DNA of 64,000 nt from positions 1 through 64,000 of the IMG/VR virus record IMGVR_UViG_3300043607_000039, one strand, 5' to 3'. Both the position numbers and the translations under genes were made by a program. The stretch is from a virus. Shown here piece after piece: positions 4,955 to 41,894 of this stretch. The notes under the pieces are model-generated. The model was not told the origin of the DNA. It worked only from the letters and a program-made list of their open reading frames with translations, and searched no databases. Numbering within the stretch: the stretch's first letter is position 1; each line of letters begins with the position of its first letter.

Positions 4955-7900
4955 TCATCCTCGGGCCCTGGCAATGTCGGCACGCTGCTGCTCAGCAAGC
5001 TCAGGGAACAGCTTGTCGAGCACTGCCGCCCGCTCCGGGAACAGGTCACGGAAGTACACGTCGCCGCTCCAGCCGCTGCCATTGGTGAGGGTGCCGGTGC
5101 CAACGACGCCCAACATGTACAGCCGGATGGACTCCGCGTAGTCCTCCTGAGGATCGGATGTTGCGTACGGCGTGACCCCGTAGGTGAAGTTTCCCCGCGG
5201 GAATGTGGACTCGAACTCGGAAGCCTTCGTCGGCTTGAAGTCGGTAATCCGCTCATTTGGGTTAGGACTCTTGGTCGCGGCCTTGACCCAGGCGGCACTC
5301 TGGGAGCCGTAGACCGGCGATGTGGTGTCGACGTTGTGGCCGAATTCATGGTTGAGGTCGCCGTCGAGGTGATCTCCACTTCCTTCTCCGTCATGCCAGA
5401 CGATCGTGTTACCGAACGAGGCTGACGCCGCAGTGCGCAGTGGCTCCTGGTCGGGGCCCAGCAGGCCCCACTTCTCTTGCCATTGCCCCTCACGAGGGTG
5501 GCCGCCCTGCACCATCACGTAGGAACGCTGGTACCGGCTGGCCCCTGGCGGCAAGTTATTGGCGTGCGCGATAAGCCTGTTCACGCCGACAGCTGCGCGC
5601 TGCCTCTCCTCTGGGGTGTCTCCGTGCTCCACGACGTAGACGACACCGTTGCGGCGCCAGGCAGTGCCGGACCCAACCTTGTATCCAACCGAGAGGGTCA
5701 GGTCACGGACGTTGGTGCCCTGGGGCCAGGTGTCCTCTTCCAGGATGCTGTCCACGGTGCGGTCGCCGCCGAGCCGGCCGGTGATGGCTCGACTACTGCT
5801 GGCTGGCACTGCGGACGAGGCCGGTCGGGCAATCCGCTCCAACAGTGACGGACGCCGGGGGGCGGCGATCTTGGGCCGGTCGCCTGTTCCGAGCTGCTTC
5901 TCTCCCGACCACGACGAGCCGTTCATGATGGAGCGGCCCAGTTCCCCCTGGTCCGAGATCTCCTTCGGTGTGGGCCAGTCCTTCATGTCTTGCTCCACGA
6001 ACCGGTCCAACCATCCGGACAGGACTTCGCGCTCCTCGGGGGTAGCCCGACTGAACGCTTGGCCAATGCGTGATGGCACGTCGCCAGCAGCGCCACGTCG
6101 GTCGGTCTGCCAGCGGAAGTCTCGACGAGCTGAGGCAAGCCCACCGTTGAAGGCAGGGCTGATGGTGGCCCGGGTGAAGCCGAGGTCGGCTAGCCTCCGG
6201 TCCTGCTGGTCATTGAACCGGGTACTCAGACCCTGCTGTTGCTGGGCCTTTTCGAGGGCGAACATGTCATTGTGGACGGTTCCCGTAGCTGGGTAGAGCA
6301 CGCGCCGGAAACCACCAACGATCCCCCCGTCCCCGTCCTTAACATCGCCTTCGACTCGAATGACTGGGTTACCGTCAATGTCCTTGTAGACGAACGATCG
6401 CTCAGGGTCCACGCGGAAGGACTTGCCGTCGTCGTCCACGTCGAAGGCGCTTGTAATGGCCTGACGCTGAGCCTCCGGCATGTCGCTCAGGTACTTCTGT
6501 CCATCGTCATCGAAGCCATTCGCTGCCAGCTCGCGCACGGTCGCCTTGTCGGTCAGCTTGACCTGTGGCCCCTCGGGCTCACGTAGGCGAGGAGACTCCG
6601 TCGAGCGACCATCAGGCTTGGATGCCCGGATGCTGTCCAAGACGTCAGTGAACAGCTTCCTGATGCGGGTCTTTGCCTCAACGAATTCCTGGTACTCGTC
6701 GGACTGGTCGTCGCTGAATGGCGACTTGTATCGACCCGTCGCCGGGTCAATGACGCCATTGTTCTTCCAGGCATCCGTCATCCGGTTCATTGTGTACTCG
6801 ACGCTGTCAAAGTCCGTGGTCGCTTCGCCCGCACGAATCCGGTCCCGGATGCCTTCCAACACGTCCTTGGGCGATCCGCGACCACCCATGCGGTCGACGT
6901 ACATCGCCGCCGCCGGCCCATCGAGCCCGTCGCCAACACGCAGAGCCTCGTCGATGGCGCTTTCGATTACCTGACGCTGCCCGGCCTTGGTCCGGACGTT
7001 GGGCTTCTTCGCGGGGGCGGCCTTCTTGGCTGCCGGCGTCGGTGCTGATACGCCGTCTGACGGAGTCGCCCGGTCCACGGCAGTGTCGTGGTCCACCTCT
7101 CGCCGTCCGAGCCGCTCACGCCAGTACTCGTTGCGCTGACCGGGAGTCAAGGTACGAAGCTCAGCCTTCTGGTCCCGGTTCAGGGCCTTGGTGAGCTTGG
7201 CCTTCTTCTCCGCATCCACGCCCTCCAGCCGTGCACGAGCAGCTGCTACAGCCGGACCCTCAGGGACTCGGGGCGCCCGTGTAGTCGCCTTAGCTGGTGC
7301 AGCCTTTTTCGCAGCCCGAGCACCTGGGGCACCCGGTGCGTCACTGGCCCGCTTGATCAAAGCCTCAAGGCGGCCATGAGCGGCGTCGTACCAGGCCTCA
7401 CGGTCCAGGCGCTGGAACTGAGGCTTCATAGCCTCCAGCTCCTTGCGGACGTCGGTCAGCTCGGCAGTGGTGAACTCGTTGCGGTCTAACCACTGGCCAC
7501 CCGTGATCAGGGTGACCCCCATCGTGTCCTTGGTTTCCAGTGAACGGTAAGGATAGGCCGCGCGGAATGGGTCATTGAAGTGGTTGCCGTCCGGCAGGAT
7601 CTCGCCGTCAGGGCCGTACTTGGGCTCGTCATCGAAGGCCAGGCTGTTGTCGAAGCCAACCGGCCTACCATCAACGATCATCCAGTTGTTGTTGTGACGG
7701 TCGCTGTTGCCAGCGATGGCGTCGAGGATCGCCATACGGCGCCCCTCGGGGGTGTGGACCGCGGCGTCAATCTCCTCTGGCGTGTGCTTCTCGGCCTGCG
7801 TTCCCTGGATCTCGTCCATGAACACAGTTCGGTCAGTGGGCCGGTAGACCGCGGCCTGTGGGGCACCAGTTCGGCGGCCCAGCTCGGAGGTGAGCTGCTC

Positions 7901-10900
7901 GCCGTCGGCCTGCTGCTCGCCCGACATGAACCAGTCGCTGGACATCCGCTTACGGATGATCTTTTTGCCGTCGGGGCCTTCGACTCTGGCGACCTGGCCC
8001 ATGCTGCCGGTGGAGATGTAGCTCCGGTCCGTGAGGCCTGCGTCGAAGGCGTCCTTCAGTGCCTGGACCTCGGGGTCCAGGTCGACGTGGTGATCTCCCA
8101 CGGGTCCGTCGCCCACGATCATGTCAATGAGCTGAGGCTTAGTGATCGAGGACGGCTTCTTCATCCCCGGTGGCAGCTCGTCGAGCAGCTCCCTCATGGT
8201 CTTGGACTCAAGCTGCTCGCGTCGCTCCTGGCCAAAGGGCTCTGCGATACCGAGACGACGCCGGATATCCTTCATCACCTTGTTGCGGAGGACGTCGAAC
8301 TTGTCCCCCTTGGTGTTCTCTAGATGCAGGGCGTCAGCAACGTCTCGCAGCTCATTGGGGCGCAGCTTTCGGCTCAGCGTGTCCGCCCGGTCCAGACCGC
8401 GAGGTGTCAGGTAGGCCGCCCGATCGGAGGAATTGAAGTCGCGCAGCAGCTCGAAGCCAGCGTGGTAGTTGTCGCCAATGACGCTGCGACGTGTCTCGAC
8501 GTCGGCAAACGGCTTGTCTGGAGTCGGTGTCGGACGTGACGAAAGGTCACCATCGCCGCCGCCACGAACCGACCGGAGCACTGGCCGCTGGAGCGTGACC
8601 ACTGTGGACTCAGTGGCTTCCGGCGTGACGTCCTTGTTCTCCTTGAAGGTGCTCTCGTACCACTCGCGGAGCTGCTTGCGGGGCCGCTCATCCGGACCGA
8701 CTCCGGCTCCGGCGAGCGCGGCGTCGGTCCGCTTGTAGGCGTCGGGCACCTTGTGGTGCTGGTCCTCGGTCCGGACCGAACGGTCCAGTTCGGCCAGGCT
8801 GTTGGACGGCACTCCGCGGCCCAGCTTGCTCTCGGCACCCAGGAAAATGCTCGTGGGTACGCCGTCGCCGGAGTTCCACTTCTCCGGGTCGGCCACCACG
8901 CCAGCCCTCGGAGCCGGGGCGGCCGGCGCCTTGTCGTTGAAGTACATCCCGGGGGTGTGGATCTCGGCCAGTTCGCCCGGCTGCACGCTGGCGCCGTCGA
9001 GCAGGTCGTGCTTGTCCGGGTCATAGGTGACCTGGTCCCCGTCGTTGCCGTCGACCGTGATGCCACGGCTCTCCAGGTGCTTACGCAGCCGGGCCTGGAA
9101 CTTGGCGGCCGTGTCGTTGTCGCTGACCTTCAGCGTCTTGCGCAGGTCCTCGTAGCCCTGGGTGTTGTGGTCGGACTTGTTGTCGATGTCTCCTACGGGC
9201 GTCTTCTTGAGCCGGTCGGCCACGGCCGTGCGGAACTCGGCCTGGCTCCGGTCGTTGCGCCGGGCCGCGATGATCTGCTCTAGCTCGGAGGCGAGCTGGG
9301 CAGTTCCACCGGCACGCTGCCGGCGGGCGCCGGCCTCCCGGGCCTGGAGCCGCTTGCGGGCGTTCTCCGTGGCGTCCGGGCTCGGCTGAGTCAGTTGGGA
9401 CTCTGAGGGGACGTCGGCCTTCTCGACCGGGCGCGGTGGAAGCTCGCGGTCACCCTTGCGGGGCTCCCCGGGACGCAGAGTCCCCTCGCGAACGACCACA
9501 GGACCGTCGCCATCCTCGACCCTGTCAGCCAGGGCCCGAATGCGGTCGGTCTCCAGATCGGCTGCCCTGCGACGTTCCACGTCACTGGCGTCGGTGGAGT
9601 AGCCCTCAGTCTGGACGGCGCCCGCCCGACGTCGGATCTGGATAGCGGCGGCCCGCCGTGAAATACGACCCTCGTCGGCTGCCTTTGCCAACTCCTCGGG
9701 TGGCGCGCTGTACGCCTCCTTCTGCGTCAGCTGCTTGGGGGCTGCTGCCTTCTTGGTGGGCGCGGCTTTCTTGACCGGTGCCGCTGAAGGCGCACTAGTC
9801 TCACCATCCCGACCTAGTACCCGATAGGGGATTCCGGCGTCGTCGAGCTTCTTCGCGATTGCCGGGGACGGCTGCTCAGGGAACACGACCTCTGCGATGT
9901 CGTCCTTGGTGACGCCGCCATGGATCTGTGCCTCGACGTAATGTGACCGCGTCCAGTCTGGGCTGTCCATTGCGTCGAGCTTGTTGATGCCGAGCGAGTC
10001 GGCTGAAGGGTTGTCCACTGGAGACGGTCGCACGAAGGGAAGCTCGTCGAGACTGTCGCCCACCGAGGCCGTCGTCCGAGACCGAACGTCTGGCTTCAGG
10101 ATGACCTGCACCCGTCCATACGGACTTAGTGAATCTTCCTGACCCTCGCGCTGCGAGATGCCCGAGATCTTCCGTCCCCCTGGTAGCGCCGGCTCGACGC
10201 CGTTGACGGCCACGTAGCCGTACACCGGCCGCTTGTCCGGTGCTGTGTCGACCGGAGTACCCAGGACGTGTTCACCAAGACGACGACGCTCAGGGCTGGA
10301 GTCCAGACCTGGAGCCCGACGTGCGCCCCGGTCGAACTGCGTCTTGAAGCGACCGTTCGACAGGATGTCGTCCAGGGCGTCCTCGTCCCGCACCCGGACT
10401 GCAATGGGCTTGTCGGCGAACTTCTCCTTCAGTCGTGCTGCCACCTTCGCCCGGTACGCGGCCGGCGTATCGCCGGCTGCCTTGGCATCCTTGTCGAGAC
10501 GGCGACGGATCTGTGTCTCCTGGGCGACGTGCTCAACGAACGCCGGTTCACGCTTGTGAACGTCGTCCAGCCACTCGGCGTCCTCCTTGCCCAGGTTGCC
10601 CGACGTTGCGACCCGTCCGTGCCGATCCTGCACTGTGGCGTAGATCTGCGGGTCCTGGCGGATGAGCCGGCGAACGCGGGCCTGGTCCTCGCGACTCAGG
10701 TCGGTAGATGGACCGCCGGCTGGGACTGCACGAACTGCTTGCGGGGCCGCAGGTGCAGCGGCCTTCATTGGAGCAGCGGGTGCTCCGCCCTCCGGCTCAC
10801 GGATGCCCTTGATGATCCGGTCGATCCGCGTGTCCCGGTCCATGCTGCTTAGGACTGGGATACTGGCCGCATCGGCGATGTCCTCCAGCTTCTGGTCAGA

Positions 10901-13900
10901 CAGCCGGTCCAGGAACTGCTTAGCGTCATCAGGGGAGTCGGCCGTGTAGACCCGGTCCACCTGGTCCAGGTTGGCGGGACGTCCATGGGCGGCCGACCAC
11001 TTGAATCGCACGTTGTCCCGAGCCTTGCCCCAGTTGGACTTGGGGTTCGCAACAGTAGCTGGCGGCTCGAACCGAGGTGTGCTCGAACCGCTGCCGTCCT
11101 TCGGCAGTGCGTTGCGACCAATGCCTGCGAACTCTGGCTTTGCTGGTACTTCGCCGGCCTGGTGCTGGCGGTACCTGTCCATACGCCAGGTACGGATTTC
11201 CTTGCTGAGGGCGTCGTTGTTGCCCGCCTCAGGGTCGAGCTTCCACATGCTGTAGGCGCCGTCGCGGCTCTCGTGGTACCGGCGCAGGATCTTGCGGATC
11301 TTGTCACTGGCGCGCGGCTCACCGTCGGAGATCTCCCGGAACGCCTCCGCCAACTGCTCCACGGCCGACTTGCGCTCATCACCGTCGTTGACCGACTCGG
11401 GGCGACGAGCCAACGGGATCCGGTTCAGATCCTCGATCAGCTTCCGGGCGAGCGGAGGTGTGTCCTCGGGCAGGTCCGGCACCGGCCGCTCAGGGGCATC
11501 CATCTTGGACAGAGCCTCGTCGTACAGCTCCCGGATCGCCGGGTCTTGCTCCTCCAGCCGCATCAGGCGCAGTTCGTCAACAGCCCTCTGGCTGGCCTCA
11601 GGGTCGCGTGAGTTGGGGCCGCTGTAGTCAGCCCGCATGTCCATGACCTTGTTGGCGGAGCCGTTGCGGCCCCTGTGGGCCAACCGCTGAGCCAGCTTCA
11701 TGGCCGGGGAGTCCCCGTGCATGATGCCGCCATCGCCGGTGGAGTCACGGGTGAGCTTCACGCTGTCCCGGGTGAGCTTCTCGCTTTCGTCAACCGGTCG
11801 ACCAGCTAGCCGACGGAGGTCCTCAGCGTCCTGCGCCTCAAGCCGGTCCATCTCGGCTTGGACGTCCGCCTCTTCCAGCATTCCATCGCCGTTACCGAGC
11901 AGGTACTGGCGAGCACGCTGAGTTTCCGGTGCCTGGAGGTCGGCAGCAGTCGCCTTCTTGGCTGCGGCCCGAGTGATCTTGACTGGACGCTCAGGGGCAG
12001 CAGGTGTCGCCTTCGGCCGCTCGAAGTTGAGGGTACGGAGGATGGTGTCGTTGAGGTCCTCGTCCTTGACCGCAGTCATGTTGCTCATACCCAGGCGCGA
12101 GCCGACACGACGCCTCTGCTCGGGAGTGAGGCCGTCGAGCCACCCCGGAATGCGGTATCCAGTGCCAGCTTGGCCACTCCTACTGATGCGCTCAGCAACG
12201 GCATCAGCGTCACGGTCGGCCTTGTTGCGAGGCTTAGGAACGGCCTCGCTGATCCTCTTCCGTGTCTTTTCCTGGAGACCGGCCGCCGACTTGAGCTTTA
12301 GTCCAGCCTCGTTGACGTGGGGCGTTTCCCGGTCGTAGCCAGCCTGACCCTCGGCCTCAAATGCGCGACCCCGACGGGCGATGGCTGCGTCCAGGGCTTC
12401 GCGTAGTTCACTGACGCTCTGTCCAGGCGGGGGCTCGTAGCCTCGTTGCCCCGGCTCGAACTCGCCCATGGTCGTGGTGTCACGACCCTCCATCCAGTCC
12501 TTGGCCTGCTGGAGAGTCGGGAATGAGGCCTTGCCGCCCATGTCAGCCTTGTAGGCCTTGTAGGAGTGCTTGGGGTTGTCCTCATCCGGTGGGAACTCGG
12601 TAATGTAGCCCAGATCCGAATTCCGATAGAACGTGATGTCCTTGATGAACCCCTCGCCGGGCTCAACTGACCATTCAACTTCCTTGGCGGCCGGAGCCGC
12701 CTTCTTGGCACGACCAGTTGCCTTGGTTGGCGGGGCGCTGATCCGCTGAGAGGGCTTGCGCAGGACCTTGAGCTTGTCCCGCAGTGCGGCCCACCGGCTG
12801 CCCTCGGCAACCAGTGCAGCCTCTTCACGGTCGCGCTGGGCCCAGTACTCAGGCGGCTGTGGAACGAGCCGACTGTCGCGGTCCTCGCCGAGCTGCCGCA
12901 GGATCATGGCCCGGTAGAACGGGCTCGCGGCACCGTTGACGTACTGATCAATGTCGCGAGCGATGTCGCGAGGGCTGACGCCCTCATCGAGTTGCTTCTG
13001 GTAACCCTCCAGTCGAGCCTTGTCCCGAGGCGTGAAGTCCTTCTGGCCATCGGTCATCTCGTCCAGGTCGAAGGTCCTAATAGGAGCTTCCACGGCCGGC
13101 AGCGGTGTGGCCTTCTTGGCTGGCACTTCCTTCTGCGGCAGGACGCGGGCCAACTGGCCCTCGGTACTGGTGTCCGCCTTCTTGGCCGCCGCAATGTCCC
13201 GACGAGCCTGGGCCACGGTCCGCTTGTCGCCAGGCGCCTCGGCAATGATCTTGCCGCGGTTCAAGATGACATACTGGTCCTTGGCGCCCTCCGCCGGGCA
13301 ACCAACACACTGGCTGCCGCGAGGCACGTGGATGGCGTCGTAGCCACGAGCCATGGCGTAGCGGCCGATGTCGTTACCCAGCAGCTGCATCTCTGGACTG
13401 TCTTCATCCAGCGTTGCGACGTAGGCGTTGTGCTCCTCGATCAGGTCCGGCAGCTCGGCGATCTTGGCGTCCTTCGCCAGACCGTATCGGGCCACTGCGC
13501 CCTCGGTCAGGTCGCTGTACCCGGTGGCGTGCTGCTTGTTCTTCGTCATGTAGGTGCCGTTGCCGAAGGAGCCGTTACCCATGTGGTAGCGGCCCTCACG
13601 GAACTCGTCATGCACCTCAGAGGCGGGCTTGCCTTTGAACTGCTCACCAAAGCCGCCATCGCGGCCGGCGGTGTCGATTCCCCGGTAGAGGATCGTGCCC
13701 ATGTCCTTGCGACGGGCCTCGAACTCGTCCCGGCTGACTACCTCCGGTAGAGCGTCGAATCCTTGACGCTCGGCCAGCTTCTCGCCCAGCAGGTCCCCAC
13801 CGCGGTCGGTCTCAAGCTCCTTCGTGAGGCCACTACCCCAGCCGGCGCGGCGACGGAAGTGTGGATCGGCGATGGCTGAGTCCACGATGGAGCGAGCGGT

Positions 13901-16900
13901 ACCCGCGCCCTCGGTGAGGTCCTTTGTCTCCACCTTTTTGGCCCGCAGGTCAGCCTTACGGGCGGCGTCAGCGTCGGCAAAGTGCTGAATGATCGCGGCG
14001 TGGATCGCCTTCTTGTCCGACTGGGCCAGTCCCTTGATCCCGAGGCCATTGCGCCCGGCCAGACTGCGCCAGGTCGCTACCGGAAGGTCGCGGTACTGGG
14101 CCCGGCCAGTTTGGGCCTGCTTCAGCTGCTTCTCGACGTTGTCCAGGACCCGCTGCCGAGCCGCCGGACCGTGAGCGTCGACCAGAGCCTGCCGAAGGTT
14201 GGTCGGGTTGACGATGCCGTCGACAACAACGGCAACACTGCGATTCTGGGCCTCGATCTCAGTCCGGTTCTTGATGCGGTCGGCGTCCTGCTTCGCGTGG
14301 AGCCGATCCATGCGGGCCTTCTGGGCCGGGATGGCACGAACTAGGGCCGCCTTGCCGTCGTCGGTCAGGATTGACTCGCGCTTGCCGCCACGCACCCGCG
14401 TCTTGACCAGACCGAGCTTCCGGAGCTGAGGTGGAATCGGGTCTGCATCCCGTAGTACCTCGCCACCGTCAGGGTTTTCCTGGTGGTTGCGCATGAGCCA
14501 GTGCTCGTCCTTCATGGACAAGCCTGGCGTGCTGGGAACGAAGTCCCTTTTGGCCTGAGACTGGACGGCGGGCGCTGCCTTCTTGGCCGCCGCCCGAGTC
14601 ACCTTGGTCGGAGTCGGGGCCTCAGTTTCGCCACGGTCATGCTTGGCGAGGGCCTCTTCCAGATCCTTCCGGGTCATCCGGCTGCGGCCAGCGATCCCGG
14701 CCTTCGACGCCCGGTCCCGAAGCTCGGCCAGTGGGGTCTGCTTCGCTGCTGCGGGAGCAGTCTTCTTCGCTACCCGTGCTTCGTCCCGCTCCAGGAGCGC
14801 GGTGTCGCGTGCCTTGAGTCGGTCCCGCTCCCATTTGTCGATCTCGGCCTTGCGGCCCTCGTACAGGCTCTGCCAGCCCTGGTACTTGGTGTCCTTGCCG
14901 CCGGGGCCAAAGATCCAGCCACCCACTCTGCCCTTGTAGTCGTGCTCAGCACCCCAGGCCTTGGCCCGAGCGATCGGGTCCTTGATGGGGCCACGCGGGA
15001 TCCGTGCAGCAGCTGGTGCCGCGACCTCCGGCTCCTCGACCGGAGCGAAGCCGTTGTTGATTTTCTCCTTGATCTGATCCACGTTGGACCGGTCCTGGCC
15101 ACGGACACCCAGGTCCCGCGCCAGTTCCCGGGCCTCAGACTGGGACAGCTCCAACGAGTCCAGGTAGTCCTGGCGCTCCTTGGTGGTCTTGCGCTCCAGT
15201 AGTGCCTTGCGAGCACGGGTCGGGATGACGTGACCAGCGACTGCCCGGTCCGGGTGCTTGGGCGTGAAGTGGCGCACGATTTTGGCCTGGACACCGGCCT
15301 CGTCGTCGCGGCCGGCGCTGACGATTCCCAGCTGCTTGGCCAGGACGCGCCACTGCGTCTTGTTCATGGGGCCCAGGTCGTCAAGGACCTTTTGGCGGGC
15401 CTCAGGAGTGGTAGCTGCGCTCAGGTCCTTGCGGATCTGGGCCGGGTTCTTTGGCCGAGTGACCCGACGTGCCCGTGGAGCGGGACCAGCAGGCGCCGCT
15501 TCCTCTCCCCCTTCACCCTTAGACATGCGGATGACGTCGCCACGACCCAGGGCGTCGATGGGCTTGCCCTGACGGTCCAGCAGCGTGCGGCCGACAACCT
15601 CGCCAACAGTGTGCTGTTCCCGGTCTTCGCCCATGACCACATCGCCAGGGCGGATGTCCCGGCGAGACACAACGTCCGGACCGGTCTCCAGCTCGTCGGC
15701 CAACTGGCGCGACTCAGGGGTGTCCAACCCCCGTAGCTGCTGAACAGCCGCAGCCTTGGTGATCTTCTTGGCGCTTAGGTCATTGAGTACGGTGTCGTTT
15801 TCGTTGAGCTGTGCGGCCGGGGCACGGGCAGGGGCGGCCTTCTTGGCCGAGGTGCGACCCTCCCGCTCCATGATGAAGGTCTGCTGGCTCGGCAGACCTA
15901 TCCCGCCGACCGCGTTGTTGGCATTATCGACCCGAACCTCGTTGCCGTCGTCATCATGACCAACAACAACCTTGAGCCGGTTACCAACCTGCTCGACCCG
16001 GTCAACGGTGATGGGCTTACTGCCACCCTGCCTGACTGCCGGCCGCCAGCGTCCATCCTCGGCTGGGGCGACAAGAACCCGGTCACCCTTGAGTAGCTTC
16101 CCGTTCGGGATCTTGCCATTGTCTCGGACTCGGCCCTCACGAGAAGGCGCTGCCACAGTTGGGGCCGCCGCCTTGGCTGCCCGCAGGCGTGGAGCCTCGA
16201 CACCTTCACCACCCGCCGCGGTGCGGGCCTCCAGTCGACGCAGCAGTGAAGCCTTGTAGTCCTCGTCGGTCAGTCCCATGGCGCCCGGGACCTTGATGGA
16301 GGCGCTGTCCTCCAGCTCCTTGCGGTCGGTCGGCAGTCCCAGAGCCTTGAGCCGGTCGTCCACTTCCGCGGCCGTACGCCGCGGGGCCGCGGCCTCGGTT
16401 AGCGCCTCGCCGAGATTGGCCTTTTTAGCTGGCGCCGCCTTCTTGGCTCCCTTGGTCGCCTTAGTCGCCTTGGCCGGAGCTGCCTTGGCTGGAGCCGGGC
16501 GACCGGCATCGCGGGCACGGATCTTGTCGGCCAGCTTCTGAAGCTGGTCGATCCGATTCTTCTCCCGGTCGTGAGTGCGAGCCTTGCCGCGCCAGTAGCT
16601 TTCGGGAAGGTCGACCCCATCCCGGCCCCAGTCTCCATTGAGGATGGTGTTCTGGGTCCGCATGTCCCCGACGAAACGCTCCAGCATGTCGGCAACCTGC
16701 GTCGGCGACGATCCTGTGTTCAGTCGGGCCTGGGCCACGTCGGAGTACGCGGCCAGGTCGGCCATGTTGATGCGCCCGTCGCGAGCTAACTGCCGAACGT
16801 CCACATGGTCCGGACCGCCAGGACCGAAGCGCTCGTTGGCCTCGCTGTCCTTACGTAGACCCTTGGCCTCGCGGGTCATGGTGCGCAGCTGCCGACGTTC

Positions 16901-19900
16901 GGCTCGCTTGGCCTGATCGTCTACATCATGAAGGGCGATGTAGCGCATCAGGTCGGTGAGCTTCTCGTCCTGGTCCTTACCTTCGATCTGGATACCCAGG
17001 GTGTCGGCCGCCTTGCGCAGGTTCTCCGGCGCCAGGGCATCGCGCTGGTCATCGGTGAGCTTGTCTTGGGAGACCTTCTTCGGCGGGGCCGCCTTCAGGG
17101 CCTTGGCTGCTGCCCGCTTGATGATGGGACGCTGCGGACGAGGCGCTTCGGAAGTTTCTGGAGCCCGATCCCGGTCATGGACCGTGCCCGACACCTTGAC
17201 CCGCTCGATGGCCCGGTACATCCCGGCTACATCGTTGATCATTCGCTTGCGCTGGGCGGCCTCAGCCGGAGTCAGGTCCTTCTCCCGCTGACCGGTCAGG
17301 TCGCGATAGTCGGCTTCCTTGCGACGACGGCTGATCCGGGCACGAAGGTGCTGGAGCGCGTCGGACTTGGACACCTCGCCGTCGCCAACGGCCTGCACCA
17401 GCTGGTCAGGGGTCAGCCTGGTGATACCTTCCCGGTCGAGCTGGGGGACGGTCACCTCAGGAGCGGCGGCCGCGGCCTTAGCTGGGCGCAGACGTGGGGC
17501 GTCCTCCGCCAGCTCACGTTCGAAGCCGCCGACCTCCATGCGTCGGAGGAACTCGGCCTTGTACTGATCGCTGGTCATCCGGGATTCGCCCGGGATCTTG
17601 CCCGAGGCGATGCCCTTCAGTGCGGCACGTGAGGTTGGTAGACCTAGAGCCTTGAGCCGGTTGTTGACGTCAACCGGAGACCCGGCCTCAACGGAGCCCT
17701 CACTGCGACGGGTAACGATCTGCTGCTTCAGTGCTTCCTTGTTGAATCGGCGCGGACTCTGGACACCCTCCTTTTGAGCAGCATCCAGCAGTTGGGCGTA
17801 GGTCTTTCCTTCCAGGTCCGCGTCACGGTCCGATGTGGAGGGAGCCGCTGCCTTTGCTGCCTTAGCCACCTTGGCAGGTGCTGCTGCCTTGGCCACCTTG
17901 GCAGGTACCTTGACGCCGCCCTCAGGCTCCAGGATGAAGGTCTGAGAGGCGCTCGGGTGCAGCTCGACCTGGTCACCGTCATCGTTCCTGAGGGTCAGGG
18001 CAACAGCCCGGGGCCGGCTGCTGACGCCTTGGCCAACGACCTCGAACGGGGTGACGTTGGTTTTGCGTGTGGTCGGGCGCCACTTTCCATCGGCACCCTT
18101 CTCCAGCAGGACCCGAACGCCAGGCTGTAGTCGACGGGCGGTGAGCTTGCCCTCGGCGGTGCCGGCCGCCTTCTCGACCGCGGGTGCAGCCTTCTTGGCT
18201 ACGGCAGCCGGCTTTGGAGCCGGTGTCTCAGGGAACCCCTTCTTGGCCTCGGCCTCCGCGGCCTTGCGAGCAGCGCCAGGCGTGGGGTAGGCACCACCCA
18301 CCGGCTCGCTCAGTGTGCTCTTCCGATCGGTCCGGACGACCTGGAAGCCTGTCTGTCCTGGCCGCCTGCGGATCTCGTACTTGACGTCAGGGTCGTTAGT
18401 GTCGACCGCGATCTTGCCGGCCGAAATCGGCGACAGGAACTCGGCCATCGCGTCACGCCAAGCGGCGTGGGTGGTGCGACTCGGCTCCTCGGCCACGATC
18501 TCGGCGACTCGTGCCCGGATCAGTTTCTGCGCTGGCTCCGGGAAGTCCTCGAACAGCTTGTTGTCATTGCGGGTGGAGGGCCGTTGCCCCACTGCACGTG
18601 CTGCCTTGACTGGTGCTGCCTTAGCCGCCTTGGCTGGCGCAGCCTTCTTGGCCGCAGGTGCTGACTCGTCACCCAGCCACACTGCGGTGTTGGGGAAGCC
18701 GGCAAGCCAAGAGCCATCGTCACGAGTGATCTTGATACGGTTGCCGTCGCGCTCGACCTTGGTGACCTTGCGCGGGATCCCGAGTTTGGACTTGTCGGAG
18801 CCGGAGCCTCCGCGGACGACGTCGCCGACCTCCACGTTGGTCATGCTCTTGCGCTGGGTGCCGTTCGCCAACGGCGGTAGGAGCTTGGCAGCTGGAGCAG
18901 CCGCGCTGATCTTCTTGACCGGGGCAGCCTTGGCGGGAGCAGCCTTCTTGACCGCGGGTGGCCTACGACCCATGGCGATGTAGACCTGATCGATGTCCTT
19001 CTTTTGCTCAAGCGGGCTCAGCTCAGCGAACGGCTTGTCCAGCTCTCCGCCCTTGACCCAGTCCTCTTCGCCATGCCGCGACAGCCACGCGGCGTGGACT
19101 GCCTCACCCACCTCCAGGCGGGTCTTCTCGTCGGTCAGGTCGACCGTGCCGCCGTGCTTCTCCAGAATGTCCTCAACGACCTTGGCCGCGTCCCGGTTCT
19201 CTTGCTTCCAGTCATCGGGTAGCTCTGCGTAGGGCGTGTTGTAGATGTCGACCTGATCGGTGCCGTGCGCCTCAATCCACGCCTTGTCCGTCGTGGGCTT
19301 GAGTCGCTCCGGCGGACCTTCGCGGCCTTCCTTGCCGGCGGCGCGCTCCTCCATCCACTGCTGCTCGAACGTCTTACGCCAGCCCTCTTGAAGCCGGGCC
19401 GCTTTCGTCTCGACGCGACGTGCACGGGCACGTTCAGCTGGAGTCGACCTCGAAGCGACAGCCTTGGCGGGAGCGGCCTTCTTGGCTGGAGTCTCCGGTG
19501 TGGGCTCCCTAACCGCAGGCGCTTCAGTTGCGGCTGGGGTGGCCTTAGCTGGGGTGGCCTTCTTTGTGCCGCCGGGTGGTGCAACGCGCCAGGGGATTCC
19601 AGCCTTCTCCAGCGCGGCAATCGTGGCCGGTTCAGGCTCGCGAGGGAACAGGACCTCTTCGATGTCATCGTTGCTGACGCCATCGTGGATCTGTGCCTCA
19701 ACGTAGGTCAATTGCTGGAACTGTGGGTCACCAAGGTCGTTGTACTTGGCCGCCGCCGGCTGAGCCGCACGGTAGTCGGGATTGTCGATCGGCATGGGGG
19801 TGAGTTCCTTGCGCCGATCCAGTGAGTCACCAGCGGAAACCGTCGTACGTGGACGGACGCTGTCCTTGAGGACAACCCGGATGTCGCCGTACTGGTCCAG

Positions 19901-22612
19901 CTTCCCTTCGCTGTGCTCACCGTCTAGTCCGCGCGGTGCCACATATCCATAGATAGGCCTGCGTTCAGCAGGAAGGTCCTTGGGGAGGCCAAACGCCATT
20001 TCTTCGAAGTCTGCACGCAGGGCCTTGTCGACGTATCCGCCGTCACTTGTTCCAGTCTCGTGCTGAGTCTTCATGCGACCGCTGGCGAGAATGTCCCGAA
20101 GGCTTGACTCACTGCTGCGGCGAACGACGATCGGCTTGCCTGGGGCCGTAGCTCGGCGAATGGCCTTTGTGGCCTTCTCCTGCATCTCGGGCGTCGCGCC
20201 CGCGTACTGGTCGACCCACGTCTTCCGGTCGTTAACTTGTTCCTTCACCAGGTGGTTGTAAATTCCCCGGTGCTCCTCGAAGAACTTCTTCAGTTCAGGA
20301 ACCCGACCAAAGAGCAATTGGGCATGCAGGTTGTCGTCGAACTCGTCGCCAATAATCACCGGCGGCCGTTCAATGCGGATCAGTTCACGCATCTTGTCGA
20401 TCTCGGCCTGGGGCACGCCCTGCTCGGCTGCGATCCTGTCAAGATCGAAGGCGGGTGCAGTGCCCGCCTTACGTGGCGCCGGAGCCGCCTTGGCCGCCTT
20501 CGCCGGCTCGGGTGCGGGAGCCTTCTCCGCGGCCGGTAGGGACTTCGTGGGCGTCTTCTTCGGCGACTTGACCGGGGTGGGCTTCTGGGGGCCCGCCTCT
20601 GCCAACTCGTCCGCGACGCCGTCAAGTTCGTCAGCCTCGCTCAGGCTAATGTCACGCAGCTCGGTCTCGCTGCGATCTCCCTGATCGTCCAGGTCCCCCA
20701 GTGCCAGGCCGTTTTCGCGTAGGTCCTTCGCCCGGACGCGGAGCCGGTCGATGACAGCGTCACGATCCTTACCGGCCGACAGGTCCCGCTTGGCTCCGGC
20801 AATCGCCTCGTCGCCGGCCACAGTGCTGGTCCGGGCACCGCCGAGGGTGTCCAGGTCGACCCGGCGCTGCTCCTCGCGCTCCTTGCTCTGCGCGATCATG
20901 CGCCGTTCGACGTCGGCGTCTGGTGCCGCAGGAGCTTCAGCTGGGGCAGTCTTCTTGGCTGCGGCCCTGGTCTCCAGGCGCTCACGGGCGACAGCTACTT
21001 CCGGTGCCTCGGGAGCGGCAGCCTTCTTGGCTGGCGCGGCCTTGGCCGCCTTCGCTGGAGCTGGGGCCTCAGGAGCCTCGGCGGGAGTCGCCTTGGCGGG
21101 CGCGGCCTTGGCTGCCTTCTTCGCTGCCTTCTTGGCGGGAGCTGGCGCCTCTGGGGCGCCTCCCTCCGCCTCCTGCTTAATCTGTCGCGCCTGCGACTGG
21201 ATCCGGGTCTCGTCGTCGTTGCGCGGGTAGCCCGGTTCCTTGCTCAGTTCCGCATCTCGCCGGACGACCGCCTTCTTCTGGACATCGGTCATGTCGGCAA
21301 TGGAGTCAGGTGCGCGCTTGACAGCCCGCTTCTTTGGAGTCGGGGCCGCAGCAGCAGGAGTTGTCCCGGCACCAGGCTGCTGGTCCATGAGCTGCTTGAT
21401 CAGCTGCTGGTTCAGCTTGATCTGCTCCAATTGCGACTTGGTCAGTTGCTCCTGGGCGCGCATGACGCGCTCCTGCTGCCGGTCAACGATGGCCTGCTGG
21501 GCGGCAACCCGCTTCTGCTCCTGCTCAAGTCGAGCCTCTTCTGGGCTCAGGACCTGCTTGGACGGGCGAGGTGTGATCTTCTCCCGGGGGGCGATTTCCT
21601 CGCCGGGCTGCACGACCTTGCCCGCGCCGAGAGGGACCTCTCCCCCGGACTCCTCGATCGCCTTGGCTGGGCTCGGGCCAGGTGGGCCGGCAGGCGCAAC
21701 AGGAGCTGGCGTATGAGCCGGAAGTCCCTGCTCGCCAGGGGCTGGCGTACCCGACGGGGGCAGCGGCTTCGGGATCGGCTGCCCGTCAGCGTCCAAGCCC
21801 CGCTTGGCCAGCTCCTCGGGAGTGGCCTCAATGGCCGGAGACTTCTCGCTCTCGGGAAGTTCGGCGCCCAGGCTCCGGGGAGCAACACCACTACCCTGCC
21901 TTGGCATGGCCGTGGCGTAGATGTAGGTACCGCCGTGCCCGTCCTTCTCCACCTTCATGATCTGAAGGGGCTGATCCTTGTCCAGGATGACCGACGTGAA
22001 GCCATCGCCAACAACGACGGCGTCAGTGCCGCGAGGGGCCAGGATCGACCAGGTGACATGGGGACCTGTGGTCTGGCGGGGTGAGCCGAGGTTGGTGGCC
22101 GAGAACGCTTTGTTGCTGACGAGCTTGCCGGTCCACTCCTCGATCTCGTCCATGCGCTCAGGAGGTAGGCCAAACTGCTGACCGTCGCCAACCCAGGTGA
22201 GGAGCATGTCCGCCGGCAGCGGCTCCATCATCGCGCTGATGTCGTTGATCTCGTCAGCGGGACCTTCGACCTTGCCCTTGGCGCCCTTGTCCTTGGGGTC
22301 ATAGCCGGCCCACATGGACTGGGTGATGCTGTCGTAGCCCTCAGGCGTGTAGAACTTTGTGATCGACTCGTTCTGCCGCTGCGTACGGGGCTTTGTCTTT
22401 ACCGCCCGCAGGTAATTGCCGGCGTGCTTATCGGACCTGAACTCAGCGGCATCGAAATGCTTCAGAATTCGGTCGACGATACCCATAGCGCGAGCACCAA
22501 GGCGCCAGCTATTCCGGAACCGACCGTGGCTGTCCCTTGGGTGCAGCTCGGCTTTCCAGTTCGCTACGTCGACTGCAAAGTCCGACGAACTGTCCCACGG
22601 GTCGACGGCCAC
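4955..22612 (-). CDS. Giant (5,885 aa) polyvalent protein: degenerate ART, 2x DUF3626-like, RyR-like, ART, GrpE-like, PI3/4K/HipA-like kinase, GNAT-like, zincin metallopeptidase
   Basis: HPRDSHGRF N-terminal motif; RPIYGY/YVEAQIH twice; LYRG..GNGTY..GYDAI..YVILN; DRHNNN..FDN; HEFGH..YATSDPQEDYAES; PAKKA linkers. Confidence 0.85.
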   Translation of the reverse strand: MAVDPWDSSSDFAVDVANWKAELHPRDSHGRFRNSWRLGARAMGIVDRILKHFDAAEFRSDKHAGNYLRAVKTKPRTQRQNESITKFYTPEGYDSITQSMWAGYDPKDKGAKGKVEGPADEINDISAMMEPLPADMLLTWVGDGQQFGLPPERMDEIEEWTGKLVSNKAFSATNLGSPRQTTGPHVTWSILAPRGTDAVVVGDGFTSVILDKDQPLQIMKVEKDGHGGTYIYATAMPRQGSGVAPRSLGAELPESEKSPAIEATPEELAKRGLDADGQPIPKPLPPSGTPAPGEQGLPAHTPAPVAPAGPPGPSPAKAIEESGGEVPLGAGKVVQPGEEIAPREKITPRPSKQVLSPEEARLEQEQKRVAAQQAIVDRQQERVMRAQEQLTKSQLEQIKLNQQLIKQLMDQQPGAGTTPAAAAPTPKKRAVKRAPDSIADMTDVQKKAVVRRDAELSKEPGYPRNDDETRIQSQARQIKQEAEGGAPEAPAPAKKAAKKAAKAAPAKATPAEAPEAPAPAKAAKAAPAKKAAAPEAPEVAVARERLETRAAAKKTAPAEAPAAPDADVERRMIAQSKEREEQRRVDLDTLGGARTSTVAGDEAIAGAKRDLSAGKDRDAVIDRLRVRAKDLRENGLALGDLDDQGDRSETELRDISLSEADELDGVADELAEAGPQKPTPVKSPKKTPTKSLPAAEKAPAPEPAKAAKAAPAPRKAGTAPAFDLDRIAAEQGVPQAEIDKMRELIRIERPPVIIGDEFDDNLHAQLLFGRVPELKKFFEEHRGIYNHLVKEQVNDRKTWVDQYAGATPEMQEKATKAIRRATAPGKPIVVRRSSESSLRDILASGRMKTQHETGTSDGGYVDKALRADFEEMAFGLPKDLPAERRPIYGYVAPRGLDGEHSEGKLDQYGDIRVVLKDSVRPRTTVSAGDSLDRRKELTPMPIDNPDYRAAQPAAAKYNDLGDPQFQQLTYVEAQIHDGVSNDDIEEVLFPREPEPATIAALEKAGIPWRVAPPGGTKKATPAKATPAATEAPAVREPTPETPAKKAAPAKAVASRSTPAERARARRVETKAARLQEGWRKTFEQQWMEERAAGKEGREGPPERLKPTTDKAWIEAHGTDQVDIYNTPYAELPDDWKQENRDAAKVVEDILEKHGGTVDLTDEKTRLEVGEAVHAAWLSRHGEEDWVKGGELDKPFAELSPLEQKKDIDQVYIAMGRRPPAVKKAAPAKAAPVKKISAAAPAAKLLPPLANGTQRKSMTNVEVGDVVRGGSGSDKSKLGIPRKVTKVERDGNRIKITRDDGSWLAGFPNTAVWLGDESAPAAKKAAPAKAAKAAPVKAARAVGQRPSTRNDNKLFEDFPEPAQKLIRARVAEIVAEEPSRTTHAAWRDAMAEFLSPISAGKIAVDTNDPDVKYEIRRRPGQTGFQVVRTDRKSTLSEPVGGAYPTPGAARKAAEAEAKKGFPETPAPKPAAVAKKAAPAVEKAAGTAEGKLTARRLQPGVRVLLEKGADGKWRPTTRKTNVTPFEVVGQGVSSRPRAVALTLRNDDGDQVELHPSASQTFILEPEGGVKVPAKVAKAAAPAKVAKAAKAAAPSTSDRDADLEGKTYAQLLDAAQKEGVQSPRRFNKEALKQQIVTRRSEGSVEAGSPVDVNNRLKALGLPTSRAALKGIASGKIPGESRMTSDQYKAEFLRRMEVGGFERELAEDAPRLRPAKAAAAAPEVTVPQLDREGITRLTPDQLVQAVGDGEVSKSDALQHLRARISRRRKEADYRDLTGQREKDLTPAEAAQRKRMINDVAGMYRAIERVKVSGTVHDRDRAPETSEAPRPQRPIIKRAAAKALKAAPPKKVSQDKLTDDQRDALAPENLRKAADTLGIQIEGKDQDEKLTDLMRYIALHDVDDQAKRAERRQLRTMTREAKGLRKDSEANERFGPGGPDHVDVRQLARDGRINMADLAAYSDVAQARLNTGSSPTQVADMLERFVGDMRTQNTILNGDWGRDGVDLPESYWRGKARTHDREKNRIDQLQKLADKIRARDAGRPAPAKAAPAKATKATKGAKKAAPAKKANLGEALTEAAAPRRTAAEVDDRLKALGLPTDRKELEDSASIKVPGAMGLTDEDYKASLLRRLEARTAAGGEGVEAPRLRAAKAAAPTVAAPSREGRVRDNGKIPNGKLLKGDRVLVAPAEDGRWRPAVRQGGSKPITVDRVEQVGNRLKVVVGHDDDGNEVRVDNANNAVGGIGLPSQQTFIMEREGRTSAKKAAPARAPAAQLNENDTVLNDLSAKKITKAAAVQQLRGLDTPESRQLADELETGPDVVSRRDIRPGDVVMGEDREQHTVGEVVGRTLLDRQGKPIDALGRGDVIRMSKGEGGEEAAPAGPAPRARRVTRPKNPAQIRKDLSAATTPEARQKVLDDLGPMNKTQWRVLAKQLGIVSAGRDDEAGVQAKIVRHFTPKHPDRAVAGHVIPTRARKALLERKTTKERQDYLDSLELSQSEARELARDLGVRGQDRSNVDQIKEKINNGFAPVEEPEVAAPAAARIPRGPIKDPIARAKAWGAEHDYKGRVGGWIFGPGGKDTKYQGWQSLYEGRKAEIDKWERDRLKARDTALLERDEARVAKKTAPAAAKQTPLAELRDRASKAGIAGRSRMTRKDLEEALAKHDRGETEAPTPTKVTRAAAKKAAPAVQSQAKRDFVPSTPGLSMKDEHWLMRNHQENPDGGEVLRDADPIPPQLRKLGLVKTRVRGGKRESILTDDGKAALVRAIPAQKARMDRLHAKQDADRIKNRTEIEAQNRSVAVVVDGIVNPTNLRQALVDAHGPAARQRVLDNVEKQLKQAQTGRAQYRDLPVATWRSLAGRNGLGIKGLAQSDKKAIHAAIIQHFADADAARKADLRAKKVETKDLTEGAGTARSIVDSAIADPHFRRRAGWGSGLTKELETDRGGDLLGEKLAERQGFDALPEVVSRDEFEARRKDMGTILYRGIDTAGRDGGFGEQFKGKPASEVHDEFREGRYHMGNGSFGNGTYMTKNKQHATGYSDLTEGAVARYGLAKDAKIAELPDLIEEHNAYVATLDEDSPEMQLLGNDIGRYAMARGYDAIHVPRGSQCVGCPAEGAKDQYVILNRGKIIAEAPGDKRTVAQARRDIAAAKKADTSTEGQLARVLPQKEVPAKKATPLPAVEAPIRTFDLDEMTDGQKDFTPRDKARLEGYQKQLDEGVSPRDIARDIDQYVNGAASPFYRAMILRQLGEDRDSRLVPQPPEYWAQRDREEAALVAEGSRWAALRDKLKVLRKPSQRISAPPTKATGRAKKAAPAAKEVEWSVEPGEGFIKDITFYRNSDLGYITEFPPDEDNPKHSYKAYKADMGGKASFPTLQQAKDWMEGRDTTTMGEFEPGQRGYEPPPGQSVSELREALDAAIARRGRAFEAEGQAGYDRETPHVNEAGLKLKSAAGLQEKTRKRISEAVPKPRNKADRDADAVAERISRSGQAGTGYRIPGWLDGLTPEQRRRVGSRLGMSNMTAVKDEDLNDTILRTLNFERPKATPAAPERPVKITRAAAKKATAADLQAPETQRARQYLLGNGDGMLEEADVQAEMDRLEAQDAEDLRRLAGRPVDESEKLTRDSVKLTRDSTGDGGIMHGDSPAMKLAQRLAHRGRNGSANKVMDMRADYSGPNSRDPEASQRAVDELRLMRLEEQDPAIRELYDEALSKMDAPERPVPDLPEDTPPLARKLIEDLNRIPLARRPESVNDGDERKSAVEQLAEAFREISDGEPRASDKIRKILRRYHESRDGAYSMWKLDPEAGNNDALSKEIRTWRMDRYRQHQAGEVPAKPEFAGIGRNALPKDGSGSSTPRFEPPATVANPKSNWGKARDNVRFKWSAAHGRPANLDQVDRVYTADSPDDAKQFLDRLSDQKLEDIADAASIPVLSSMDRDTRIDRIIKGIREPEGGAPAAPMKAAAPAAPQAVRAVPAGGPSTDLSREDQARVRRLIRQDPQIYATVQDRHGRVATSGNLGKEDAEWLDDVHKREPAFVEHVAQETQIRRRLDKDAKAAGDTPAAYRAKVAARLKEKFADKPIAVRVRDEDALDDILSNGRFKTQFDRGARRAPGLDSSPERRRLGEHVLGTPVDTAPDKRPVYGYVAVNGVEPALPGGRKISGISQREGQEDSLSPYGRVQVILKPDVRSRTTASVGDSLDELPFVRPSPVDNPSADSLGINKLDAMDSPDWTRSHYVEAQIHGGVTKDDIAEVVFPEQPSPAIAKKLDDAGIPYRVLGRDGETSAPSAAPVKKAAPTKKAAAPKQLTQKEAYSAPPEELAKAADEGRISRRAAAIQIRRRAGAVQTEGYSTDASDVERRRAADLETDRIRALADRVEDGDGPVVVREGTLRPGEPRKGDRELPPRPVEKADVPSESQLTQPSPDATENARKRLQAREAGARRQRAGGTAQLASELEQIIAARRNDRSQAEFRTAVADRLKKTPVGDIDNKSDHNTQGYEDLRKTLKVSDNDTAAKFQARLRKHLESRGITVDGNDGDQVTYDPDKHDLLDGASVQPGELAEIHTPGMYFNDKAPAAPAPRAGVVADPEKWNSGDGVPTSIFLGAESKLGRGVPSNSLAELDRSVRTEDQHHKVPDAYKRTDAALAGAGVGPDERPRKQLREWYESTFKENKDVTPEATESTVVTLQRPVLRSVRGGGDGDLSSRPTPTPDKPFADVETRRSVIGDNYHAGFELLRDFNSSDRAAYLTPRGLDRADTLSRKLRPNELRDVADALHLENTKGDKFDVLRNKVMKDIRRRLGIAEPFGQERREQLESKTMRELLDELPPGMKKPSSITKPQLIDMIVGDGPVGDHHVDLDPEVQALKDAFDAGLTDRSYISTGSMGQVARVEGPDGKKIIRKRMSSDWFMSGEQQADGEQLTSELGRRTGAPQAAVYRPTDRTVFMDEIQGTQAEKHTPEEIDAAVHTPEGRRMAILDAIAGNSDRHNNNWMIVDGRPVGFDNSLAFDDEPKYGPDGEILPDGNHFNDPFRAAYPYRSLETKDTMGVTLITGGQWLDRNEFTTAELTDVRKELEAMKPQFQRLDREAWYDAAHGRLEALIKRASDAPGAPGARAAKKAAPAKATTRAPRVPEGPAVAAARARLEGVDAEKKAKLTKALNRDQKAELRTLTPGQRNEYWRERLGRREVDHDTAVDRATPSDGVSAPTPAAKKAAPAKKPNVRTKAGQRQVIESAIDEALRVGDGLDGPAAAMYVDRMGGRGSPKDVLEGIRDRIRAGEATTDFDSVEYTMNRMTDAWKNNGVIDPATGRYKSPFSDDQSDEYQEFVEAKTRIRKLFTDVLDSIRASKPDGRSTESPRLREPEGPQVKLTDKATVRELAANGFDDDGQKYLSDMPEAQRQAITSAFDVDDDGKSFRVDPERSFVYKDIDGNPVIRVEGDVKDGDGGIVGGFRRVLYPATGTVHNDMFALEKAQQQQGLSTRFNDQQDRRLADLGFTRATISPAFNGGLASARRDFRWQTDRRGAAGDVPSRIGQAFSRATPEEREVLSGWLDRFVEQDMKDWPTPKEISDQGELGRSIMNGSSWSGEKQLGTGDRPKIAAPRRPSLLERIARPASSAVPASSSRAITGRLGGDRTVDSILEEDTWPQGTNVRDLTLSVGYKVGSGTAWRRNGVVYVVEHGDTPEERQRAAVGVNRLIAHANNLPPGASRYQRSYVMVQGGHPREGQWQEKWGLLGPDQEPLRTAASASFGNTIVWHDGEGSGDHLDGDLNHEFGHNVDTTSPVYGSQSAAWVKAATKSPNPNERITDFKPTKASEFESTFPRGNFTYGVTPYATSDPQEDYAESIRLYMLGVVGTGTLTNGSGWSGDVYFRDLFPERAAVLDKLFPELAEQQRADIARARG

Positions 22613-33730: not shown

Positions 33731-33826
33731 CGGGTCGTAGTTCAGGGTAGAGCGCCGCGTAAAGGTGTTAGCCGCAAGGTGCACGGAATGTAGCGGAGGC
33801 GCAGGAATCGAATCCTGCCGACTCCA
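33731..33826 (+). ncRNA. tRNA-like RNA with anticodon loop replaced by a 34-nt insert
   Basis: Acceptor, D and T arms present; CCGC/GCGG stem encloses a GCAA-capped hairpin. Confidence 0.6.
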
Positions 33827-33830
33827 GTCT

Positions 33831-36439: not shown

Positions 36440-36512
36440 TCCGAGTTGGTGTAAATCGGTAGCATGGCGGTCTCTGAAACCGTCGGTCTAGGTTCGAGCC
36501 CTGGACTCGGAG
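36440..36512 (+). tRNA. tRNA-Gln(CTG)
   Basis: Loop CTCTGAA. Confidence 0.9.
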
Positions 36513-36533
36513 CAGTAACTCTTGGGGGCACAC

Positions 36534-36788: not shown

Positions 36789-36882
36789 TCTCCGCTAGCT
36801 GGAGTCACGTCTAGCGCACCACGGCGGTAATGCAGTCCCTGCCTCCCATGGCGTACTGGCGTCGAGGCAGGGACTGCATCCA

Positions 36883-36963
36883 GGGGGTAGTAGGTACGAC
36901 TGGTGTTGAAGGCCGAGGCATCGGAGCGGCATCAGGACTCGGGTTCGAATCCCGATACCTCCA
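36883..36963 (+). ncRNA. Minimal tmRNA-like RNA (tRNA-like domain only, no tag ORF)
   Basis: GGGGGTA/TACCTCC-A with G3:U70; stemless D-loop GG...CGAC; 9-bp P2 helix; GAC linker; TCGGG-TTCGAAT-CCCGA T-arm. Confidence 0.75.
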
Positions 36964-36972
36964 CACGGAAAT

Positions 36973-37045
36973 GCTCTGGTAGCCCAAAGGTAGAGGCACT
37001 GTCTTGAGGAGGCAGCCAGTGGGAGTTCGACTCTCCCTCGGAGCA
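36973..37045 (+). tRNA. tRNA-Leu(GAG), short variable loop
   Basis: Loop TTGAGGA. Confidence 0.85.
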
Positions 37046-37046
37046 C

Positions 37047-37121
37047 GGTCTGGGCGTAGCCCAAAGGTAGAGGCAGCCCCTCAAAGGTGTAGTTGCGGAT
37101 TCGACCCCCGCCCCCAGGCCA
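37047..37121 (+). pseudogene. Degenerate tRNA with TCA in the anticodon position
   Basis: D-arm identical to the preceding tRNA-Leu; weak anticodon and T stems. Confidence 0.4.
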
Positions 37122-41818: not shown

Positions 41819-41894
41819 GGATCCGTACCCAAAGCCTGGTTTATGGGCCCGCCTCTTAAGCGGAGTTACGTCGGTTCAAATCCGACCGGATCCA
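41819..41894 (+). tRNA. tRNA-Lys(CTT)
   Basis: Loop CTCTTAA. Confidence 0.85.

Follow-up and report, generated by a model that had tools for sequence, protein, structure and literature searches.

Tag-less mini-tmRNAs, predicted in an uncultured tRNA-rich phage and in other phages, form a large conserved family and are probable competitors of the host rescue-and-tag system

The DNA analysed in this work (the window) covers the first 64 kb of IMG/VR record IMGVR_UViG_3300043607_000039, a phage genome of 93 kb with a G+C content of about 62% that is complete according to CheckV. ARAGORN identified 43 tRNA genes, all on the + strand between 33.4 and 57.5 kb, and inside this array lies a predicted gene of 81 nt which corresponds to the tRNA-like domain (TLD) of a tmRNA and carries no message (Table 1). 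The portal and major capsid proteins match, among cultured phages, only actinobacteriophages (of Arthrobacter, Mycobacterium, Gordonia, Microbacterium and Actinoplanes), with 27-44% amino-acid identity, and the phage is therefore, as judged by its proteins, a distant, uncultured and actinobacteriophage-like virus, which is moreover rich in tRNA genes. A megablast search of cultured phages with the mini-tmRNA region gave no match. In the structural gene block one uninterrupted reading frame, 5,885 aa long, was observed (4955-22612, - strand).

The mini-tmRNA gene is placed between tRNA-Gln(CUG) and tRNA-Leu(GAG). Since the latter begins only 9 nt after the discriminator base and lies on the same strand, co-transcription of the mini-tmRNA and a tRNA-type processing are implied. 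The small ORFs flanking it have no match in Pfam or PHROGs, and a scan for promoter and terminator signals in its vicinity found none and was uninformative. A near-perfect long hairpin (36830-36881, + strand) ends 1-2 bases before the 5' end of the mini-tmRNA. It is composed of a 16-bp stem (GCAGUCCCUGCCUC.../...GAGGCAGGGACUGC) and a further inner stem, with no U-tract after it, and its role could lie in processing or stabilisation, or else be that of a terminator-like structure for the upstream 88-aa ORF.

Besides the called tRNA genes, further tRNA-like sequences were observed on the + strand. The sequence at 37048-37119, between tRNA-Leu(GAG) and tRNA-Thr(UGU), was not called by ARAGORN and has a weak Rfam match (tRNA-Sec, 18 bits). 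It has a D-arm in common with the neighbouring tRNA-Leu; its acceptor stem and its T-arm are well formed and its anticodon stem is degenerate, with UCA as the triplet that the loop would present. A paralogue in decay or an unusual opal-reading tRNA could account for this sequence. The tRNA at 41819-41894, also without an ARAGORN call, scores 46.6 bits in Rfam and folds with an enlarged D-arm and the anticodon loop CUCUUAA, that of Lys(CUU). In the tRNA-like RNA at 33731-33830 an extended insert replaces the anticodon loop; folded alone, it keeps the acceptor and the T-arm, with a stability no better than that of shuffled sequences (z -0.73).

Table 1. Predicted mini-tmRNA of the window, its parts in 5' to 3' order, and the flanking tRNA genes
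Feature	Positions	Strand	Remarks
tRNA-Gln(CUG)	36440..36513	+	upstream of the mini-tmRNA; synteny anchor common to the 148-kb relative; ARAGORN
Tag-less mini-tmRNA gene, tRNA-like domain (TLD) only (predicted)	36883..36963	+	81 nt to discriminator A73
Acceptor stem, 5' strand GGGGGUA	36883..36889	+	G3 at 36885; fold
Stemless D-loop GUAGGUACGA	36890..36899	+	10 unpaired nt; equivalents of E. coli C18, G19, A20
P2 helix, 5' strand CUGGUGUUG	36900..36908	+	fold
Cap replacing pseudoknots and tag ORF	36909..36926	+	18 nt: AAGG, hairpin CCGA-GGCA-UCGG, AG
P2 helix, 3' strand CGGCAUCAG	36927..36935	+	fold
GAC linker	36936..36938	+	A and C equivalent to E. coli A334 and C335
T-arm UCGGG-UUCGAAU-CCCGA	36939..36955	+	fold
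Acceptor stem, 3' strand UACCUCC, and discriminator A73	36956..36963	+	U70 at 36959; fold
tRNA-Leu(GAG)	36973..37046	+	9 nt downstream of A73; synteny anchor; ARAGORN

In its minimum-free-energy fold (-33.7 kcal/mol, z -2.16) the RNA has an acceptor stem of 7 bp that includes the pair G3:U70. The equivalent of E. coli C21 (36900) comes directly after the D-loop and opens P2, so that the end of the D-loop reads CGAC. P2 is a helix of 9 bp, three of them G-U pairs, and its last G (36935) is the equivalent of E. coli G333. Its two strands are separated by just 18 nt, and none of the pseudoknots PK1-PK4 is present. CCA is not encoded, the 3' flank being CAC. There is no tag reading frame, as no frame leading from an Ala codon to a stop was found anywhere in the 81 nt; after the D-loop a single stop triplet occurs, the UGA within P2, and it is not preceded by any Ala codon in frame. 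The RNA is, in this way, a complete TLD whose parts stand in the standard, unpermuted order; a short cap closes P2, and a coding part is missing. The first-pass annotation had claimed an Ala-type acceptor stem with G3:U70 and A73, which is exact both in the sequence and in the fold; the stemless D-loop, the 9-bp P2, the 18-nt hairpin cap, the GAC linker and the T-arm are all as it had described them, and it was equally right in that the RNA has no message.

The Rfam tmRNA model (RF00023) aligned globally with this RNA, with its whole middle deleted, and gave 45.4 bits (E 2.8e-18 for the 93-kb genome), just below the Rfam gathering cut-off of 47 bits. A covariance model, R1, was built from a seed of eight similar RNAs found in other viral contigs, the window being excluded. 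It scored the RNA of the window at 60.4 bits (E ~2e-12), its second-best place in the genome being a tRNA-Ala with 27 bits, and it gave no more than 36 bits to tRNAs and to the ends of full-length tmRNAs.

Other identities were tried and rejected. A tRNA, or a tRNA-Ala in particular, is contradicted by ARAGORN, which makes no call at 36883-36963, by RF00005, which has no match there at its gathering score or in a permissive scan, and by the fold, from which a 7-nt anticodon loop is absent. The mascRNA model reached 24.9 bits against a cut-off of 42.5, which reflects a general tRNA-like shape only. A mitochondrial (permuted) tmRNA was discarded as the model RF02544 had no match at E <= 1. Infernal with the two tmRNA models, and ARAGORN, had been proposed as checks of the RNA: RF00023 recovers it from end to end, under the cut-off, and neither RF02544 nor ARAGORN detects it.

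The RNA belongs to a kind that is already published. The entry "Mycobacterium phage DS6A (TLD only)" is listed by Hudson, Lau and Williams (PMC4131195), who cite Mao et al. 2009 for it, and nine "standard, no CDS" sequences are present in the database of Nawrocki, Petrov and Williams, beside the CDS-less mitochondrial and plastid forms (PMC11915505). The RNA had initially been treated as unprecedented, which has to be corrected, since a phage TLD-only tmRNA has been on record since 2009/2014; because of DS6A, a single further instance will be no surprise to a specialist. We located the DS6A RNA at NC_023744 28478-28560, and it aligns part for part with that of the window. Both are phage-borne, of about 80 nt, and have G3:U70, A73, a stemless D-loop ending in CGAC, a short hairpin-capped P2, a G/C-AC linker, a T-arm and no tag frame. 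Their scores are alike as well (43.2 and 45.4 bits with RF00023, 69.8 and 60.4 bits with R1, for DS6A and the window, respectively), and SmpB is lacking in both phages. They differ in that they are only about 60-70% identical and that the D-loop of the window is 3 nt shorter. Moreover, the RNA of the window is inside an array of 43 ARAGORN-called tRNA genes of a 93-kb phage whereas that of DS6A stands alone, and DS6A is a temperate phage of 60 kb with an RtcB ligase. Searches of the genome of the window's phage found no SmpB, RtcB, tyrosine integrase or class-II CCA-adding enzyme (PolyA_pol family).

The tRNA-like domain is common to the standard one-piece tmRNA (SsrA, RF00023), and annotated tmRNAs of Streptomyces, Gordonia and Mycobacterium phages share 83-90% identity with the 3' 30-36 nt of the RNA. 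However, the standard molecule has about 350-400 nt, and its four pseudoknots, resume codon, tag frame and helix 5 are absent here. The CDS-less tmRNAs of organelles (those of jakobid and oomycete mitochondria, RF02544, and the ~65-bp plastid forms of Mallomonadaceae) are also reduced to the TLD and, as would be the case for the RNA of the window, depend on an SmpB encoded elsewhere (PMC11915505). Nevertheless the mitochondrial genes are usually circularly permuted and in two pieces, unlike the unpermuted gene described here, and the setting is also different, given that the virus faces a host which already has the complete system.

A loose pattern with GGGG, CGAC, GNAC and parts of the T-arm as its fixed elements matched 73 contigs in IMG/VR. 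Offset duplicates and matches inside full-length tmRNAs were removed, including two where ARAGORN calls a full-length tmRNA, which left 58 distinct RNAs: those of the window and of DS6A and 56 further ones from IMG/VR viral contigs. They have 73-89 nt and score 52-92 bits with R1 (non-members, at most 36), and the RF00023 cut-off is exceeded by 41 of the 46 other members tested. ARAGORN finds none of the short forms. Carrier size lies between 16 and 148 kb and G+C content between 45 and 75%; tRNA genes adjoin the mini-tmRNA in about a dozen of 41 carrier loci, and most of the others, DS6A included, have none. The CAC that follows A73 in the window is a partly encoded 3' end. In the family, C comes directly after A73 in 55 of the 63 pattern matches considered, and yet only 17 encode the full CCA. 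No published description of a wide phage distribution of the short form was found in the literature searched.

In bacterial genomes, one true short form was found among the 80 pattern matches listed, the rest being 3' parts of ordinary tmRNAs, and the short form is thus nearly absent from bacterial genomes among these matches. The exception is located at 6053-6131 (+ strand) of a 14.6-kb contig of an Aquaspirillum MAG; a prophage, or a phage contig placed in the wrong bin, could explain it.

Because plain MAFFT misplaced the 5' ends, two counts of covariation were made, one on a model-based alignment and the other from fixed anchors. On the former, which is fitted to the model, 95.8% of the cells of the 58 sequences are paired, against 71.4% after shuffling and 34-54% when the strands are slid. 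Two-sided changes were seen in 14 of the 22 pairs, namely acceptor pairs 5-7, six of the seven proximal P2 pairs, the 3 bp of the capping hairpin, which is conserved in the family, and T-stem pairs 1 and 4. The alignment-free count of P2 pairing from the anchors gave 83% in register and 33-37% slid. The covariation that was to be looked for in related phages is therefore present.

The census is biased by the pattern, and the invariance of CGAC, GNAC and parts of the T-arm is no evidence of conservation, because the pattern fixed them. This is not the case of U70. The pair G3:U70 occurs in 58 of 58 members, and the other acceptor pairs that start with G are G:C; A73 is also invariant (58/58). 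Selection for alanine identity is therefore indicated, and the invariant pair points to a predicted recognition by alanyl-tRNA synthetase.

A portal-based search of IMG/VR gave just one 10-kb fragment and one distant match, and for this reason a single relative covers the mini-tmRNA locus. This CheckV-complete contig of 148 kb is collinear around the tRNA array, with 65-76% nucleotide identity in the neighbouring ORFs, and has a short form at the equivalent place, between tRNA-Gln(CUG) and tRNA-Leu(GAG)/Thr(UGU). The acceptor, P2 and T-stem bases of this copy differ from those of the window and yet still pair, that is, the changes are compensatory. The possibility raised in the first-pass annotation, that close relatives would carry a full-length tmRNA and the short form would be a one-off deletion, is thus not borne out, the only relative that covers the locus having a diverged short form at the equivalent position.

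The same observations bear on whether the RNA might be a functionless relic, either what a deletion left of a full-length phage tmRNA or the core of an ssrA-derived attachment site. In its favour, ssrA is a frequent integration site of temperate phages, which carry the 3' end of this gene (PMC9004378; PMC10865867), and the RF00023 score of the window is under the Rfam cut-off. However, both halves of the TLD are present, compensatory change is seen in all helices across the 58 sequences and the diverged syntenic orthologue preserves the structure; moreover, a tyrosine integrase was not found in the genome of the window, and DS6A integrates at a tRNA-Lys gene and not at ssrA (PMC10865867). This explanation is strongly disfavoured and we consider it very improbable. 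The scores of the models, the architecture, the covariation across the 58 homologues and the syntenic orthologue all support what the first-pass annotation had proposed, and the sequence evidence identifies 36883-36963 as a real gene for a phage-borne tmRNA tRNA-like domain without message.

Together with SmpB, the TLD mimics a tRNA. SmpB contacts A15/U17/A334 and C18/G19 of tmRNA, A334 being part of the pocket of SmpB Trp122, and the change G19C abolishes binding (PMC8363625). The RNA of the window holds the equivalents of C18-G19-A20-C21 and of G333-A334-C335, and with them those of the contacts C18, G19 and A334. The position equivalent to U17 is an A, where about 90% of the family members have U; compared with that of E. 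coli the D-loop lacks 3 nt, and no member of the family has a shorter one. SmpB was found in none of 50 carriers, 18 of them complete records, and a full-length tmRNA in none of 46; the 93-kb genome of the window's phage has neither.

Based on these features, we infer that the RNA is expressed, charged and bound by SmpB and that it has an effect on trans-translation. The mini-tmRNA would be part of one transcript with the tRNAs that surround it on its strand, from which the tRNA-processing enzymes of the host would excise it, and a host enzyme would add CCA. Alanyl-tRNA synthetase would recognise it through G3:U70 and A73, and SmpB would bind it at the D-loop and the GAC elbow; this SmpB would be that of the host because the phage encodes none. 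The charged RNA would then compete with the full-length tmRNA of the host for SmpB, and probably for stalled ribosomes too, with the consequence that proteins from broken messages would no longer receive the degradation tag during infection. We regard such a suppression of tagging through competition as the best reading and as reasonably probable. It is consistent with the account of Mao 2009 in PMC4131195 and PMC11915505, according to which a TLD-only molecule inhibits E. coli tmRNA, perhaps by titration of SmpB.

Nevertheless, the inhibition in E. coli did not require a chargeable RNA (Hudson et al., PMC4131195). A plain titration of SmpB therefore leaves the invariance of G3:U70 unexplained, and for this reason a role on the ribosome, in the form of a tag-free rescue or of a dead-end occupation, is also conceivable. 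In a tag-free rescue, the alanylated mini-tmRNA would enter stalled ribosomes with the SmpB of the host and take over the nascent chain, and the peptidyl-RNA would be released or hydrolysed. The ribosomes would be recycled for phage translation and the products would stay unmarked for proteolysis, as proposed for the CDS-less mitochondrial tmRNAs. The presence of G3:U70 and A73 in all 58 members argues that charging matters, and in mitochondria the CDS-less tmRNAs have been kept along with SmpB (PMC11915505). In addition, a TLD-only RNA accepts a peptide in vitro according to the description of Shimizu and Ueda 2006 in PMC3895274. On the other hand, such an RNA is reported to be inhibitory in E. 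coli (PMC4131195).

A possible enzyme for the hydrolysis step in such a rescue is encoded by the phage itself. At 70152-70580 (- strand) of the 93-kb record, outside the window, there is a gene for a stand-alone protein of 142 aa with a GGQ / RF-1 domain (GGPGGQHQN, phrog_3122), which is similar to the PrfH and ArfB catalytic domains but scores far below the cut-offs of these families, and which could putatively hydrolyse peptidyl-RNA. It also exists in the 148-kb relative. However, this relative is the only one of the 50 other carriers that has it, and a general coupling of the mini-tmRNA to an ArfB/RF-1-like hydrolase was accordingly rejected; as the protein is absent from the other carriers, it would be at most a lineage-specific partner. 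Moreover, we know of no way in which the cycle could be completed without a resume codon and a stop codon, and overall we consider a tag-free rescue possible but doubtful.

Both functional ideas, the sequestration of SmpB and the tag-free rescue, are already in the literature for the DS6A RNA and the mitochondrial tmRNAs (PMC4131195, PMC11915505). A bolder version would be that these RNAs are an undescribed large phage family that needs the Ala charge. If the mini-tmRNA must be charged with alanine to work, then it acts on the ribosome and is not a mere SmpB sponge, either in a tag-free rescue or in a dead-end poisoning of the rescue pathway of the host, with the GGQ protein maybe as a partner in this phage. 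We would put this forward as a speculative and rather unlikely proposal.

The RNA could also be imagined as a decoy for a target outside trans-translation, such as a host defence factor that recognises tRNA- or tmRNA-like RNA (for instance a nuclease, or the OB-fold domains resembling SmpB that CoCoNuT restriction systems are predicted to contain) or enzymes that process or modify tRNAs. SmpB-like domains are in fact predicted in type II/III-A CoCoNuT systems (PMC10542128). Nevertheless, every conserved feature of the RNA serves, in real tmRNA, the recognition by AlaRS, EF-Tu or SmpB. A decoy is in our opinion improbable, and both this explanation and that of a relic are weaker than competition for SmpB and tag-free rescue; to our knowledge, no defence system acts on the TLD.

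Trans-translation is the main route of ribosome rescue and quality control in bacteria and a proposed antibiotic target. The mini-tmRNAs constitute a large conserved family in phages, which probably competes with the rescue-and-tag system of the host. To what was known from DS6A, the case described here adds a well-formed example from within a tRNA set that is nearly complete, a syntenic orthologue that has diverged, and support for a family-wide invariance of G3:U70, which makes the question of whether these RNAs are sponges or ribosome-active directly testable. A natural and widespread phage RNA of 80 nt engaging trans-translation would be a compact tool, and would signal that phages routinely tamper with this pathway.
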